From IMG/VR virus record IMGVR_UViG_3300033066_002255: a stretch of 64,000 nt of DNA. One strand, written 5' to 3'. The notes beneath the pieces are model-generated. The model was not told the DNA's origin. It did no database searches and saw only the letters and a program-made list of their open reading frames with translations. Shown here piece after piece: positions 1 to 7,965 of the stretch (positions within the stretch are counted from its first letter, which is position 1; the number at the start of each line of letters is the position of its first letter). A program made the position numbers and the translations under genes. The DNA comes from a virus. Taxonomy: Duplodnaviria > Caudoviricetes.

Positions 1-479
1 TCTAATAGTTCGACAGGTTTAAACATTGCGATAGGTTTTGGAATTTCTGTAAACATATCTTTGACTATTACTTTAATTCCTTTTCCCATATCGCCAAATA
101 GTCCATATACTTTCCAATTGCATACTTCTTTCCCTTTTTTATCAATCATTTTGCCTGAATTGCATTCTTGATAATCTGTTGAAATTCCACCACAGCAAGG
201 GCATTGATATTGTTTACTTGGGAACTTTGCTTTCACATCTTCAATCGTATCAAAAACATACACTTCTGATAAATCAGGAAAGTTGGCATTTTGAAAATAA
301 TTTGTGTAATTACAGTTTCTTGATTTTGCAAATAGTTCCAAAGTTTCAAGTTCAGTTTTGCCCATAACTTTGGCATACTGTGGCACTTTTTCACAAAGGA
401 AATTTACCTTTTCAACTACCCTTTGCAACCCAGTTTCACCAGGCCATCCATTGTATATTTCAACAATGATTTTATTCAT
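1..479 (-). CDS. Cassette gene, hypothetical protein with CPCC...C...C (possible Zn-binding); 3' end outside window
   Basis: My translation from ATG 479: MNKIIVEIYNGWPGETGLQ...YQCPCCGGISTDYQECNSG...VCNWKVYGLFG..., open to the edge. Absent from the ORF track because it has no stop. Confidence 0.75.
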   Translation of the reverse strand, partial: MNKIIVEIYNGWPGETGLQRVVEKVNFLCEKVPQYAKVMGKTELETLELFAKSRNCNYTNYFQNANFPDLSEVYVFDTIEDVKAKFPSKQYQCPCCGGISTDYQECNSGKMIDKKGKEVCNWKVYGLFGDMGKGIKVIVKDMFTEIPKPIAMFKPVELL

Positions 480-501
480 AATGTCCGACTGCAAAAGGGC
501 A

Positions 502-638
502 GCAGGTAACACTGTATTGCCAAAAGGCAGGGCTGACGTAAGTTCATCAGCATTTGTAATTCTATTGTTCATTTGTATTTATTTTGAAGTTTTGTAATTC
601 TAATCCCTGCCCTTCGGCAATACTTTTTCGTTATGTGC
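502..638 (+). repeat. attC-like site A
   Basis: gcaggtAAC-act-GTATTGCCAAAAGGCAGGG...CCCTGCCCTTCGGCAATAC-tttttc-GTTatgtgc; 17/19 stem. Confidence 0.85.
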
Positions 639-642
639 AAGG

Positions 643-855
643 CTACTTGACTGCTCCGAAATCAAAATGCGGAAGAATACGAAATTCACATTCATTTAGT
701 CTGTAAATGGTATTTAGTTCTGCATCTTTTCTTTGGTCTGCGAATTGTTCAATAACCGCCAATTGGTCTTGTGTAATAATTAAAGTCTGTTTTGGTTTCT
801 TTGAGTTTGTTGTTAAGTCAAAGATTTCGCCAATGTGAATTTCGTATTTGTTCAT
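643..855 (-). CDS. Cassette gene, hypothetical 70 aa
   Basis: Fills cassette 631-980; TAG stop abuts the R box. Confidence 0.75.
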   Translation of the reverse strand: MNKYEIHIGEIFDLTTNSKKPKQTLIITQDQLAVIEQFADQRKDAELNTIYRLNECEFRILPHFDFGAVK

Positions 856-891
856 CTTTTTAAATTAAATTTAGTGCTGATAAACCGCCCA

Positions 892-988
892 GCACATAAC
901 AGCGGTTTGGCAAAAGCTGCCATTGAAATTTGTGCGAAAATTGAGCATCCGTTAGGCAGCCTTCGCCAAGCCCGAAAACGTTATGTAC
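892..988 (+). repeat. attC-like site B
   Basis: gcacatAAC-agc-GGTTTGGCAAAAGCTGCC...GGCAGCCTTCGCCAAGCC-cgaaaac-GTTatgtac. Confidence 0.85.
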
Positions 989-1049
989 AAGTGCTATTTT
1001 AGTACTTATAATTGAGTTCAGCGGTTAAAACAAAAAGAATTTTCCCAAC

Positions 1050-1751
1050 TCACTTATTTTTTGATGATTTAATTATATCTAATATTTCACTCCACTCAGT
1101 GTTATTAATAGGTATGGTTGTCAAACTTTGATATGTGTCTATATTACAATATGTTTCTAATTCAGATAAATCAGAATCATACATAATATATTCATTACCA
1201 ATTTCATAATCTTCAATAACATCATTTTTACTATGAAATCCCATCACATCCCAATATAAATTATCATTTAATTTTATATAAACGTGTATAACTTCTTGGT
1301 CTTCCTCGGAAAAAATATAGGTAAATTTGTTATAACCTAATTTAGAAACCTCTTTCGCAAATTTAAAACAACTTCCTCTATTAATATCTTGAAAATTTAT
1401 GGTTTTTAGATTTCTAATATTCAACGCTATATAACTAAGGTCTTTATATTTTTCATTTTGTGTCTTCTTAGTAATAAATTTATTCTTTTTTTGATTATAC
1501 CATTGCTGTGCTGAATTTAGTGAATCAAATTTGTAATATTTACCATCAAGAACTTGAACACCATAACCACCTCTATTTTTACCGTTTTCATCATATAAAT
1601 ACTTATTCAGTTCTTCAGTATCATTGTTAGGTATGTTATATGCTATAATTTTCCCATCATTATCAAAAACATATAAAAAAATATCATTTTGAATATTTTC
1701 ATTCAAATATTCTCTTATGGTGGTTGCTATAAACTTTCTCAAATTTTTCAT
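1050..1751 (-). CDS. Cassette gene, 233 aa phage-type protein with N-terminal LRKFIATTIREYLNE motif
   Basis: Fills cassette 981-1983; TATTTATA motif upstream at 1766-1773 (-). Confidence 0.8.
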   Translation of the reverse strand: MKNLRKFIATTIREYLNENIQNDIFLYVFDNDGKIIAYNIPNNDTEELNKYLYDENGKNRGGYGVQVLDGKYYKFDSLNSAQQWYNQKKNKFITKKTQNEKYKDLSYIALNIRNLKTINFQDINRGSCFKFAKEVSKLGYNKFTYIFSEEDQEVIHVYIKLNDNLYWDVMGFHSKNDVIEDYEIGNEYIMYDSDLSELETYCNIDTYQSLTTIPINNTEWSEILDIIKSSKNK

Positions 1752-1857
1752 CGTTTTCTTTTATATATAAATATTTAAATTTAAAATTTCCACCCTAAAA
1801 TTATTTTTGTTTTTGTCTGTGGTTCTAATCAAGTTTTATCTGAACTTCACCGCACCT

Positions 1858-1991
1858 GTACATAACAAAGTGTATATGTAATGGTGGGTTTATCTCTAAT
1901 CCAAACATTAGTGGTTTCTATAAAGTTGTGTGGTTAATTGAAGTTTATCTCTATTTATCCACCACTACATATACACCCGACCGTTATATGC
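1858..1991 (+). repeat. attC-like site C
   Basis: gtacatAAC-aaa-GTGTATATGTAATGGTGG...CCACCACTACATATACAC-ccgacc-GTTatatgc; 17/18 stem. Confidence 0.85.
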
Positions 1992-2149
1992 TACTTTAAA
2001 ACCGCTTCGTTGATAGCTCGTTCGCATATTTGCCGTATTGTATCTTTTCCTAATTTTTCGATTTGAGAAGTTAAAACATAGATTGTTAATTGCTGTTTTT
2101 TATCGGTGCAAGGTTTCCTCCCTGCACCGTTTCTTTTACCGCCTTTCAT
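1991..2149 (-). CDS. Cassette gene, 52 aa basic protein, probably DNA-binding (GGKRNGAGRKP N-terminus)
   Basis: MKGGKRNGAGRKPCTDKKQQLTIYVLTSQIEKLGKDTIRQICERAINEAVLK*. ATG overlaps the upstream TAA (TAATG) and TAG abuts the R box. Below the ORF-track size cut-off. Confidence 0.75.
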   Translation of the reverse strand: MKGGKRNGAGRKPCTDKKQQLTIYVLTSQIEKLGKDTIRQICERAINEAVLK

Positions 2150-2361
2150 TACTTAATAATTATTGCGTGTCTTTTACCCGTTTCTTTGTCGCTAATCCAA
2201 ATGTGTGAGCCACTTACCCCAACGATTATATTATCGTCTGTGTTTACATCTAAGCATCTTACAAATGATTCAATGTCGCTTGTTTCTAATGCTTCGTTGT
2301 AAGCGTTTTCAATTTGTAATTTTAACGCTTCGTTTTTTGTTTCTACTGTTAATTTTAACAT
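2149..2361 (-). CDS. Cassette gene, hypothetical 70 aa
   Basis: In cassette 1984-2595; promoter-like TATCTTCG at 2395-2402 (-); coupled to 1991-2149. Confidence 0.75.
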   Translation of the reverse strand: MLKLTVETKNEALKLQIENAYNEALETSDIESFVRCLDVNTDDNIIVGVSGSHIWISDKETGKRHAIIIK

Positions 2362-2469
2362 GGCCTATCGTTTTTAATTGTTATTAATCTGATACGAAGA
2401 TAAACCTTTATTTTGAATAAACAATAGTTAAAATCAATTATTTTTCAAAAAAATGAAAATAAAAAAGCA

Positions 2470-2603
2470 GCATATAACACGCAATATAGCAAATGGCTGG
2501 TTCTGTGTTTATTCAAAGTTTTTGCTTCGCATTAACGGTGGTGTAACTTGATAGGTTCGTAGCCCGCAATCAGCCACTTGCCATATTGCCAAACGTTACC
2601 TGC
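2470..2603 (+). repeat. attC-like site D
   Basis: gcatatAAC-ac-GCAATATAGCAAATGGCTG...CAGCCACTTGCCATATTGC-caaac-GTTacctgc; 17/19 stem. Confidence 0.85.
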
Positions 2604-2608
2604 AAGTG

Positions 2609-3439
2609 CTACATTTCGTTTCCAAAGAGAGTTCCTGCTTGTAAATCTTTTTCTTTTCTTTTTTCTTCCCACGCTTTTTTAATACGTTCTTCAATAATAT
2701 TACAGTATTCAGAAGATATTTCGCTTCCAATCCAATTACGATTATTTAAAATACTCATTTTAGCTACCGTTCCGCTTCCCATAAAGCAGTCGTAAACCAA
2801 GTCATTTTCATTGCTCCACGTTGTTATGTGGTCATTTGCTAATGCTTCTGGAAATGGTGCAGGATGTCCTGTTTTTTCACGACCAAGCGTATAAGCAAAA
2901 ATATTCGGTGCAATCTTGTTTTCTTTGGTTGCCTTAAATTCGGTTTCATCATACAATCTCATAGCGTGTTTTGAACCGTGATTTTGTCTGCGTTCTAATC
3001 CGTATTTTTCAACCTTTCCAGCTTGTTTACAAGGTATCATTATTGGATTAAATGTTTTCGGCTTTCCTTTGCTCAAAATAAACATATACTCAAATGATTG
3101 CTCATATCGGTTATGTGTCAATGGCACATAGTTTATTTTTTGGTAAATCATTGTGTCGTGCAAATTAAACCCTATCTCTTTAAAAAATAATGCTTGTTTA
3201 AATGATGTTCCGCTTTCACTTCCATTCATTGTTGCATCGCCTACAATCCAAACAACTACACCGCCTTGTTTAGTAATTCTAAATAACTCTTCGGCAATTT
3301 CTTCAAATGCAAATGAATAACCATTATATTCTCGTAAGTTATCATAAGGTGGCGAAGTAACTGTTAAATCAATGAAATTATCAGGCATTTTAGCCATTGT
3401 ATCAAGGCAATTTTCGTTATATATTTTATTTATTTCCAT
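2609..3439 (-). CDS. Cassette gene, beta-class N4-C/N6-A DNA methyltransferase
   Basis: TSPPY (motif IV) precedes HPAPFP and DCFMGSGT (motif I). Confidence 0.92.
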   Translation of the reverse strand: MEINKIYNENCLDTMAKMPDNFIDLTVTSPPYDNLREYNGYSFAFEEIAEELFRITKQGGVVVWIVGDATMNGSESGTSFKQALFFKEIGFNLHDTMIYQKINYVPLTHNRYEQSFEYMFILSKGKPKTFNPIMIPCKQAGKVEKYGLERRQNHGSKHAMRLYDETEFKATKENKIAPNIFAYTLGREKTGHPAPFPEALANDHITTWSNENDLVYDCFMGSGTVAKMSILNNRNWIGSEISSEYCNIIEERIKKAWEEKRKEKDLQAGTLFGNEM

Positions 3440-3506
3440 CCCTTCTTTTTTTAAATTCTTTTCTTTAGTGCTTCGATTTGAGTTTAGTGGTTAATTAACC
3501 GAGCCA

Positions 3507-3580
3507 GCCAGTAACACGTGCTATAAGCAAGTTTGCCGCAGGCGCAACACAAACCTGCTCATAGCACGTGTAAGTTTAAA
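3507..3580 (+). repeat. attC-like site E (terminal; its R' box continues into guaC sequence)
   Basis: gccagtAAC-ACGTGCTATAAGCAAGTTTG...CAAACCTGCTCATAGCACGT-gtaa-GTTtaaa; 18/20 stem. Confidence 0.75.
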
Positions 3581-4411
3581 TCCTTTTTTGTGAAGCCAAG
3601 CAGCAAATTTTGATTTTGGATTTATCTTGATATATTTAAATAATCTTGTTTCTCCGCAAGATTCAAGGCTTTTATTAAGCATAGAACCTACCATAACATA
3701 ATCTGCACCAAGAGCAATTGCTTTTATTATATCTGAATAGTTTTTCATTCCTCCATCTGCAATAATAAGTGGCTTATTATCTTGAAGTATTAATGACTTA
3801 TGATAACAATCTCGTATTAAAGATGCCATAGGATATCCCACACCTGTTTGTTGTGTAGTAAGACAACCATTTCCATTGCCTATCCCAACTCTAACAGCAT
3901 CCACTCCAGCCTTCGCTAATTCAACATATGTATTTGGATGCGCTACATTTCCTGCCATTATAAAAAGCTTATCACCATATTTATTTTTTGCCTCTTTTAT
4001 AGCTGTAGTCATCTTATGCATATGACCATTAGCCATATCAATAAGAACATAATCTCTATTTTTCGGTGGAGCAATCCCTTCTCGTGTACTTATACCAGGA
4101 GAAAAGAAAACTGTTCCATCTATATAGGTCTTAATAAATTCATCAAGAGATAATGAAGAGAAGGTCTTAAATGCACCTGAACGAACATAATATGATGCTC
4201 TTGGAAAACAAATATTTATTTTGTTATTCCAAAAATCTTTCATATTGTAAGGGTCTACAACAGTATCCATTGGTGCTGTAAATATTGGTAACATACCATT
4301 TTCATCAAAAGGATTAACCTGTGTACGTGAACTAATTTGTGTTTGTACTGCTGGCTGTATTAATATATCATTAAAATCAAATTTTGTTATTTTCTCTTTA
4401 TCGAATCCCAT
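3521..4411 (-). pseudogene. guaC: GMP reductase/IMPDH-family protein, C-terminally truncated by the cassette array
   Basis: APMDTV, AGNV, RVGIGNGNGCLT, IIADGG and GADYVMVGS are present. The expected (F/Y)RGMS flap and final helix are missing, and the last ~17 aa are read from attC site E. Confidence 0.8.
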
Positions 4412-6640: not shown

Positions 6641-7248
6641 TATTTTACTTCTTCTGTTTTTTCAGGTTCTTTTAAAAGATTTAAAATTTCTTCACTAATT
6701 ATTTCTTTTGTTTTTGAAGCATCTATTGTTTCTAAACCTCTATTACCTGCAAATAGATAACCAGTTTTAAAATAATTTATAACTGGAATAGTTTGAGCTT
6801 TATAAGTATTAATTCTTGTTTCTACAACTTCTTCTGCGTCATCAGCCCTATTTTCCACAAGAGCTCTTGCTTTAATTCTTTCTTTAATAATCTCATTAGT
6901 TGTATCTAATAAAATAATTTTATTTAATGGAGTTTTTCTGCTATTAAGAAATTCGTCAAGAATTTTAGCTTGGTCTACAGTTCTTGGAAATCCATCAAAT
7001 ATAAAACCATTTGCTTTAGGATTATCAATCACATTTTGTTTTACCATTTGAATAACAATTTCATCTGGCAAGTATTTGCCTTTATCAATTAATTGAGTAG
7101 CAAGCTTACCAATTTTGGTATCTTTTTTTTGCTCTTCTCTAATTAAATCTCCAGTAGATAAATGTATTAACCCTAATTGCTCTGCAATTTTTTTTGCTTG
7201 AGTACCTTTTCCCGAACCAGGAGGTCCCATAAGAACTATGTTTATCAT
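6640..7248 (-). CDS. adk: Adenylate kinase (short LID)
   Basis: GPPGSGKGTQ, STGDLIR, FDGFPRT, RADD. Confidence 0.95.
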   Translation of the reverse strand: MINIVLMGPPGSGKGTQAKKIAEQLGLIHLSTGDLIREEQKKDTKIGKLATQLIDKGKYLPDEIVIQMVKQNVIDNPKANGFIFDGFPRTVDQAKILDEFLNSRKTPLNKIILLDTTNEIIKERIKARALVENRADDAEEVVETRINTYKAQTIPVINYFKTGYLFAGNRGLETIDASKTKEIISEEILNLLKEPEKTEEVK

Positions 7249-7258
7249 ATAAATTAAT

Positions 7259-7405
7259 TTAAGCTTTTTTCAATCCTTTTTTTATTCTTCTTTCGTTTTT
7301 AACTAATTTCTCAAGTCTACTAATAACAGGCTTTAAATCAGAACCACCTTTAGTTTTCAAATCTTTGATTGATTGTACTAAAACTTTTTTCATCTCTTCA
7401 TTCAT
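7259..7405 (-). CDS. Small basic protein, 48 aa
   Basis: MNEEMKKVLVQSIKDLKTKGGSDLKPVISRLEKLVKNERRIKKGLKKA*; fills the def-adk gap on the same strand. Confidence 0.6.
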   Translation of the reverse strand: MNEEMKKVLVQSIKDLKTKGGSDLKPVISRLEKLVKNERRIKKGLKKA

Positions 7406-7416
7406 AAATTTATTGT

Positions 7417-7965
7417 TTATTTTTTATACTTATAAGTAGGTAAAAAATTTCTTTTTATTATATCATTCAATTTGCCTTGAATAAGTTTTCTTCTGAATGA
7501 AGATATTTTTTTCGTGAATAAAATTCCATTTGTATGGTCATGTTCGTGCTGAATACATCTTGCTGCTAAACCTTCAAACCATTCATCATGTTCAATAAAA
7601 TTCTCATCAAAATATTTTAAACGAATTTTTGGTTTTCTATTAACAGCTTCTTGTATTCCAGGTATACTTAAACAACCTTCGGTAATAGAAATTTCCTCGC
7701 CTTCTTCTTCTATAATTTCAGCATTTATAAAAACTTTTTTAAATTCTTTAAGTGTTTCATCCCCTTCTTTATATGGAATTAAATCAATAACAAAAAGTTT
7801 GATAGGTAAACCAACTTGATGTGCTGCAAGTCCAATTCCATGTGCTTCATACATAGTTTCAAACATATCTTCTATAAGAGAAGATAAATTTTCATATGTA
7901 TTATCTATTTCTTTACCAGGTAAAGATAGAATAGAATCATTATATATAACAATAGGTCTTATCAT
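7417..7965 (-). CDS. def: Peptide deformylase
   Basis: GIGLAAHQ, EGCLS, QHEHDH. Confidence 0.95.
   Translation of the reverse strand: MIRPIVIYNDSILSLPGKEIDNTYENLSSLIEDMFETMYEAHGIGLAAHQVGLPIKLFVIDLIPYKEGDETLKEFKKVFINAEIIEEEGEEISITEGCLSIPGIQEAVNRKPKIRLKYFDENFIEHDEWFEGLAARCIQHEHDHTNGILFTKKISSFRRKLIQGKLNDIIKRNFLPTYKYKK

Follow-up and report, generated by a model that had tools for sequence, protein, structure and literature searches.

A probable integrase-less array of Bacteroidota integron-like cassettes with genes on the folding strand in a Caudoviricetes virus

The IMG/VR virus record IMGVR_UViG_3300033066_002255 (Duplodnaviria; Caudoviricetes) was analysed over a stretch of 64,000 nucleotides (nt), which is called here the window. 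Between positions 502 and 3580 it contains five imperfect palindromes, E1 to E5, which are found within 3.1 kb among six genes of the minus strand and resemble attC, the recombination site of integron cassettes. The array formed by these sites and genes is embedded in a co-directional gene block. The sites of the window, and those of the other phages considered below, were called by a scanner of our own. The features of the locus are as follows:

3-572, minus strand: gene of the E1-headed unit, incomplete at the window start and with no family match
502-645, minus strand: E1, attC-like site with extended arms; on the plus strand TAAC at 507-510 and GTTA at 630-633 (direct reading and site scanner)
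643-855, minus strand: cassette gene of 70 amino acids (aa); it ends on the TAG of GCTA (643-645), at a distance of 9 nt from the box
857-904, minus strand: conserved 48-nt leader plus the GTTA-side arm, from sequence comparison with other phage arrays
890-999, minus strand: E2, attC-like site; TAAC at 897-900 and GTTA at 980-983 on the plus strand
1050-1751, minus strand: cassette gene of 233 aa with no family match; stop TGA, 66 nt from the box
1856-1993, minus strand: E3, attC-like site; TAAC at 1863-1866 and GTTA at 1983-1986 on the plus strand
1991-2361, minus strand: small cassette genes of 70 aa and 52 aa that overlap each other; TAG 1991-1993 is the stop of the distal gene
2468-2611, minus strand: E4, attC-like site; TAAC at 2475-2478 and GTTA at 2595-2598 on the plus strand
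2609-3439, minus strand: N6/N4 DNA methyltransferase cassette gene; stop TAG 2609-2611; homologous cassettes in L102 and L050
3512-3577, minus strand: E5, last site in the top-strand direction; TAAC at 3512-3515, degenerate GTT at 3574-3576
3521-4411, minus strand: truncated GMP-reductase/IMPDH-like backbone gene; its tail is encoded by E5

On the plus strand, E1 to E4 follow a common plan: TAAC, a spacer of 2-3 nt, a stem of 16-22 bp, a loop of 33-72 nt, the other half of the stem, a spacer of 5-6 nt with a final C, and GTTA (box to box 507-633, 897-983, 1863-1986 and 2475-2598). The TAAC and GTTA boxes, as in the attC sites of classical integrons, are both present in the four of them. E5 is built as TAAC-AC-stem-loop-stem-GTGTAA-GTT; its outer box is only GTT and adjoins backbone sequence, and its stem is similar to that of site A1 of the phage record L001. 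The window thus contains at least two attC-like sites close together with no integron integrase nearby, which is what defines a cluster of attC sites lacking an integron integrase (CALIN).

The first-pass annotation of this DNA had stated that nearly all the stem mismatches of the five sites are A-C on the plus strand, that the minus strand folds better and that all the cassette genes are on this same strand. Direct reading of the stems gave nine A-C and two G-T mismatches on the plus strand, and the minus strand was the better folder in five out of five sites when both strands were folded as DNA (minus/plus, in kcal/mol: -19.1/-16.5, -18.3/-14.3, -15.6/-14.1, -20.5/-17.8 and -22.1/-17.6 for E1 to E5). 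The listing of open reading frames (ORFs) also agrees with that description. As had been noticed too, the GTT boxes of E1 to E4 are directly followed by GCTA, and ORFs 643-855, 1991-2149 and 2609-3439 stop on the TAG of this motif; the two remaining complete ORFs of the array end in TGA (1050) and TAA (2149). Most other genes of the window do end in TAA (51 of the 53 backbone ORFs of at least 100 aa, with one TAG and one TGA). Both the strand bias of the mismatches and the stop joints go beyond chance.

A scan of viral contigs with a 14-base pattern revealed arrays of this site family in about 38 further contigs; most of the matches to the pattern are due to chance, and the loci were then filtered by structure. 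One further array was found in LR745206 (L001), a 635-kb record of an uncultured phage. In these phage arrays 93 of 98 ORFs are on the strand that reads AAC-G, which is the folding, bottom-type strand, so their orientation is that of the window. The distances from stop to box peak at 9 nt (16/45) and at -3, where the stop is the TAA of TAAC (10/45). The wobble bias is also general: in 131 distinct phage sites, scored symmetrically, the gene strand shows 233 G-T against 75 A-C pairs. Besides, for the pair of arms on either side of an ORF, complementarity extends on average to 5.2 of 8 positions; the values are 2.6 between the arms within a site and 2.8 between arms paired at random. Arms matching across the ORF, and not within the site, are typical of units that become circular at the boxes. 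The stems of the family are ungapped, with 16-22 bp, and lack extrahelical bases, the feature linked to strand choice in classical integrons and read there by the IntI-specific segment of the integrase. The asymmetry of these sites consists instead of the unpaired spacer (5-6 nt on one side and 1-3 nt on the other) together with fixed G-T and C-A pairs.

Two of these phages show some particular traits. The array of L001 (4870-6690) has four sites and the same reversed gene orientation; two of these sites are short, with 48 nt in all and a loop of 11 nt. In Polaribacter phage P12002L (L123), about nine sites of the family are found on the gene strand between 31 and 41 kb, several of them with CAAC/GTTG boxes.

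In integrons, a cassette is by definition a gene without a promoter that has its attC behind it and is expressed from the platform. The polarity of the sites had to be fixed, as a TAAC...GTTA palindrome gives the same reading on either strand. The core pattern of the stem retrieved more than 120 bacterial loci, almost all of them from Bacteroidota, in which the sites show the same box, spacer and stem consensus as those of phages. Full-length alignments of phage and host sites give 72-90% identity; among the window sites, only E1 matches host sites, and this match is partial (76% over 70 of 127 nt). The first-pass annotation had named a shared orientation of host and phage arrays as evidence against an inverted layout. 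The orientation found is not shared: genes flanking the host sites are on the strand opposite to AAC-G, by 92 to 19 on one side and by 115 to 13 on the other. In the host loci L166 and L146 the recombinase gene is followed by co-oriented ORFs, each of them followed by a site, which is the canonical layout. The gene strand of the hosts, that is, the top strand, reads TAAC-A...C-GTTA; consequently, the plus strand of the window is the top strand and its genes are on the opposite one. Host arrays with the phage orientation had been considered on the basis of a TAG motif 5' of AAC, and this candidate was rejected when the ORF count showed the opposite. As for classical sites, one strand of attC-aadA7, which we take to be the bottom strand, reads TAAC-G...T-GTTA. 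The gene strand of the phage arrays reads in the same way (primer sequence, supplement of PMC9892861).

The wobble bias was also determined in the host sites, where only those outside the search pattern were counted (the pattern itself includes two G-T pairs) and scoring was symmetric. The AAC-G strand, which is antisense to the host genes, has 130 G-T and 56 A-C pairs. As the bias is found even where the strand is antisense, it is a feature of the DNA and not of an mRNA. The host sites also bear on the stop joints, whose precise position next to the box had been proposed as a clue to how cassettes are created. TA[GA] at -12 is part of the site consensus, being present in 39% of the sites in hosts, in which genes do not end at this point, and in 34% of those in phages. 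This proposal is therefore not sustained, since a TAG present in the host consensus as well makes the stop joint a consequence of the layout rather than specific evidence on cassette origin; the phage genes run into a stop already provided by the arm.

The extent of the mobile unit is indicated by blocks shared between different arrays. One methyltransferase cassette was found in four different phage arrays. Its copies in L120 and L071 are 100% identical over 802 nt with unrelated flanks, and the identical block extends from the TAAC of the site preceding the gene to a precise end at ...CACATAAC, beyond the stop of the gene. The reading frame begins with an ATG located in the loop and continues through the 3' arm. 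In all the phage-phage blocks with at least 88% identity, the AAC box of both partners is the position of ten ends and the GTT box that of none, which identifies the site plus its downstream gene as the mobile unit. Identical blocks in different arrays also imply that members of the family have exchanged DNA recently. Among the hosts, no more than five shared blocks were obtained, two ending at the AAC box and one starting at the GTT box, which are too few to weigh. That the plus strand could be the recombined one, the other outcome that had been seen as fatal to an inverted layout, is made unlikely by these sequences, in which phage blocks end at the AAC box of the gene-sense strand. The earlier proposal that the genes are on the recombinogenic, better-folding strand, inverted with respect to canonical cassettes, is thus supported by host orientation and by the block ends.

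If the minus strand were the top strand, the polarity would have been misread and each gene would be followed by its own site as in any canonical cassette. In the direction of the genes the succession of gene, stop, RYYYAAC box, hairpin and GTT box certainly resembles that of ordinary cassettes, and the 5' arm of the gene strand is longer by 3-4 nt, a trait of the top strand by analogy with attC-aadA7 and the Vibrio cholerae repeats (VCR). Assignment by this longer-arm rule was ruled out by the boundaries of the shared units, the host orientation count and the block ends. The opposite polarity is set by the host arrays and their recombinase, the shared units have the site ahead of the gene, and both the likeness of the gene strand to the presumed bottom strand of attC-aadA7 and the wobble bias favour the gene strand as the folding one. 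Canonical cassettes are thus considered extremely improbable here.

Taken together, these data indicate with good confidence that the window would contain an integrase-less array of Bacteroidota integron-like cassettes whose genes are on the folding strand, with four complete units and a fifth one that runs off the window start. The plus strand would be the top strand of the sites, and the minus strand the one that folds and is most probably cut at AA|C. The hosts would carry their genes on the top strand, each followed by its site, whereas in this phage and its relatives the genes would be on the folding strand. In the direction of the gene, a unit would begin with the C-G-spacer, the hairpin, the GTTA arm and the leader, continue with the gene, and finish with a stop inside the terminal arm followed by ...TAA. 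The site would precede its gene, and the terminal arm of the unit would supply a ready TAG or TAA stop.

Related to the enzyme that could move these units, homologues of one Xer-like tyrosine recombinase (34-48% identity) are encoded in 12 of 120 host loci, which had been fetched by the site pattern only. In 11 loci (10 host loci and the viral contig L058) recombinase and site could both be placed, and in 10 of them the recombinase gene occupies the top-strand head of the array. In the host loci the genes point away from the head recombinase, whereas the genes of the window, where no recombinase is found, run in the direction of the top-strand head. L058, a viral contig rated complete, encodes its own Xer-like recombinase of 266 aa (6886-7686, the same as L122 1465-2265), about 490 nt from a five-site array with the phage-type gene orientation and on the side expected for an integrase from the attC polarity. 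This protein lacks the IntI-specific segment and reaches 150 bits with TIGR02249, the integron integrase model, whose cut-off is 265 bits. In five site-carrying host genomes no match to TIGR02249 was found at the cut-off, and the best ones are in two pieces that skip model positions 178-239. The recombinase heading the Arundinibacter array (L166 2223-3899) is a protein of 558 aa with a long N-terminal extension before the Xer-like part. The cassettes of the window would be moved in trans by a Xer-like recombinase of this kind, without the IntI insertion and encoded by the host or by some phages; the enzyme would act on the folded minus strand, and replication would resolve the product as in integrons.

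Several observations weigh against an array of mobile integron-like cassettes. No homologue of the recombinase was detected by tblastn in the 64-kb window, nor in four of the five viral contigs tested. The left end of the array is beyond the window start, and the choice of strand in recombination is deduced from sequence. P12002L_attC1, the only member of the family that has been assayed at the bench, did not recombine with IntI1 (PMC9892861); this failure fits a different enzyme, and it proves nothing positive. Moreover, not all the homology breaks are at the AAC box: the methyltransferase gene of the window diverges from its L102 homologue in two places, the GTTA box and a point inside the 3' end, and the homology of the 48-nt leader module (857-904) also breaks at the GTTA box. 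Such breaks mean that the other box or ordinary recombination contributes too.

The lack of a recombinase in the window is also what would be expected if the array were a relic of a single past capture event that is no longer mobile in this phage, as are the degenerate outer box of E5 and the truncation of the neighbouring backbone gene. Nevertheless, the boxes, arms and stems of E1 to E4 are all complete, the arms across each ORF of the window still match, and the identical blocks in different arrays point to recent exchange within the family, so that a fossil array seems unlikely.

The nearest phage-side analogue of these elements is the cassette type with promoter early stem-loops (PeSL) of T4-type phages (PMC2839356, PMC4122927), in which short repeated stem-loop modules flank small non-essential genes in the hyperplastic regions of large phages, and for which mini-circles are known. 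PeSL elements are promoter-terminator modules exchanged by homologous recombination, and in a similar way the hairpins of the window could be terminators or RNA-stabilising stem-loops, and the leaders promoters, shuffled by homologous recombination between repeats. The folding of the hairpins on the sense strand, where G-T pairs would be G-U pairs in RNA, and the conservation of the 48-nt leader beside unrelated genes would agree with this explanation. However, the same wobble bias is found in host sites where the strand is antisense, the boundaries are exactly at AAC, and the complementarity of the arms is that of circular cassettes. The sites studied here, unlike PeSL, have AAC/GTT crossover boxes and are shared with host arrays headed by a tyrosine recombinase, and no sigma-70 or Bacteroidota promoter signal was obtained in the test performed: the host-type -7 box TAnnTTTG was counted 7 times ahead of the genes on their own strand, without enrichment over shuffles (9.3), although phage promoters may differ. 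The earlier proposal that the cassettes are self-expressed is weaker than that of their inversion. No T-run was seen downstream of the stems of the window sites. Purely regulatory cassettes of the PeSL type are for these reasons very unlikely, and the hairpins of the integron-like array may have a regulatory side-role.

When compared with integrons (IntI, attI and attC, including the sedentary chromosomal ones), the system has several properties in common: imperfect palindromes between ...AAC and GTT... boxes, matching outer arms on the two sides of a gene as for a circular intermediate, folding biased to one strand with exchange at the AAC of that strand (here predicted from the sequence), arrays of small accessory genes and, in the hosts, a tyrosine recombinase at the head of the array. 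It differs from them in three respects. The linked recombinase is Xer-like and has no IntI-specific segment, the stems are ungapped and have no extrahelical bases, and the phage genes are all on the bottom strand with the site before the gene, instead of an ORF followed by attC on the top strand.

Integrase-less attC clusters in phages have already been published, including that of Polaribacter phage P12002L (Qi, Rajabal, Ghaly, Tetu and Gillings 2023, PMC9892861), and the window resembles them in having such a cluster in a virulent-type phage with DNA methyltransferase cassettes. P12002L_attC1 of that work belongs to the site family of the window. Two P12002L sites are listed there, one of them unlike this family, whereas about nine were found in the present scan; 'divergent directions' are mentioned in the same paper, without a systematic reversed orientation of the genes. 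The search of the literature yielded no paper describing the reversed cassette layout.

Inverted cassettes are also known in Vibrio, where the genes of toxin-antitoxin cassettes are antisense to attC polarity. These cassettes of the chromosomal integrons carry their own promoter (PMC13108822) and are independent of the platform promoter, as the phage units would also be. However, they are a minority within canonical arrays, whereas the reversed layout is the rule in phages (93/98) and the gene can start inside the site.

On the bacterial side, almost no integrons were found in Bacteroidetes with IntegronFinder 2.0 (PMC9024848), and Bacteroidota arrays with an insert-less Xer-like recombinase were not found in the literature searched. 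The standard integron finders miss the Bacteroidota system because its recombinase has no IntI insertion. The array connects large virulent-type phages with this integron-like system of Bacteroidota, and it would constitute a concrete route for the rapid phage-phage exchange of methyltransferases and other small accessory genes. A phage cassette population built in reverse suggests that the chemistry of recombination is separable from the expression logic of the platform, and the combined absence of extrahelical bases and of the IntI insertion makes the system a natural case in which to examine how strand choice is determined when single strands recombine. A wider reading, which is tentative and may well prove wrong, is that Bacteroidota phages keep their own mirror-image pool of cassettes, apart from that of the hosts. 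According to it, the recombination hairpin would also work as 5' control region and N-terminal coding sequence and the terminal arm also as universal stop, so that a phage gene of any kind, once inserted between two of the sites, would be mobile and ready to be translated. Xer-like recombinases lacking the IntI domain would exchange the sites, using the non-template strand that transcription or replication of the phage leaves exposed.

As regards the individual genes of the window, five of the six cassette genes gave no match in Pfam and PHROGs. The loop of E1 carries the ATG (570-572) of ORF 3-572. This site supplies the start codon and about 20 codons, and the frame runs through its 3' arm in the same way as in the methyltransferase cassettes common to phage arrays. 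At the other end of the array, the relatives of the GMP-reductase/IMPDH-like protein have about 360 aa, with ...SFNRFNK at the C-terminus. The similarity of the window copy to these relatives stops at about residue 255, after which there are unrelated codons and then a tail of 17 aa from the hairpin E5. The lost C-terminal part is encoded nowhere in the window, and the backbone gene seems to have been destroyed by the end of the array.

The leader at 857-904 is present with 92-100% identity in at least eight other phage arrays, where it adjoins unrelated site cores and unrelated ORFs (L030, L104, L065, L097, L071, L113, L058, L032 and L001); the core of E2 together with the leader is common to L031, L076 and L089. 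The leader may be a portable expression or binding module. It also includes a small hairpin (GTGCTG...CAGCAC), of which the box arm forms part.

Finally, the leader of the methyltransferase cassette (window 3440-3480) matches L050 at about 2030-2100, where it appears to be the last codons and the stop of another methyltransferase gene, and in L050 that gene is located directly upstream with no site in between; this hints that the cassette could have been cut out of a two-gene operon. At the opposite end, window 2594-2635 is 93% identical to L102 1216-1257 and comprises approximately the last ten methyltransferase codons, the TAG and the box arm. The matching segment of L102 is the end of a different ORF of 230 aa, and the methyltransferase homologues of L102 and L050 have another C-terminus; the ends of genes seem to have been swapped together with the box arm.

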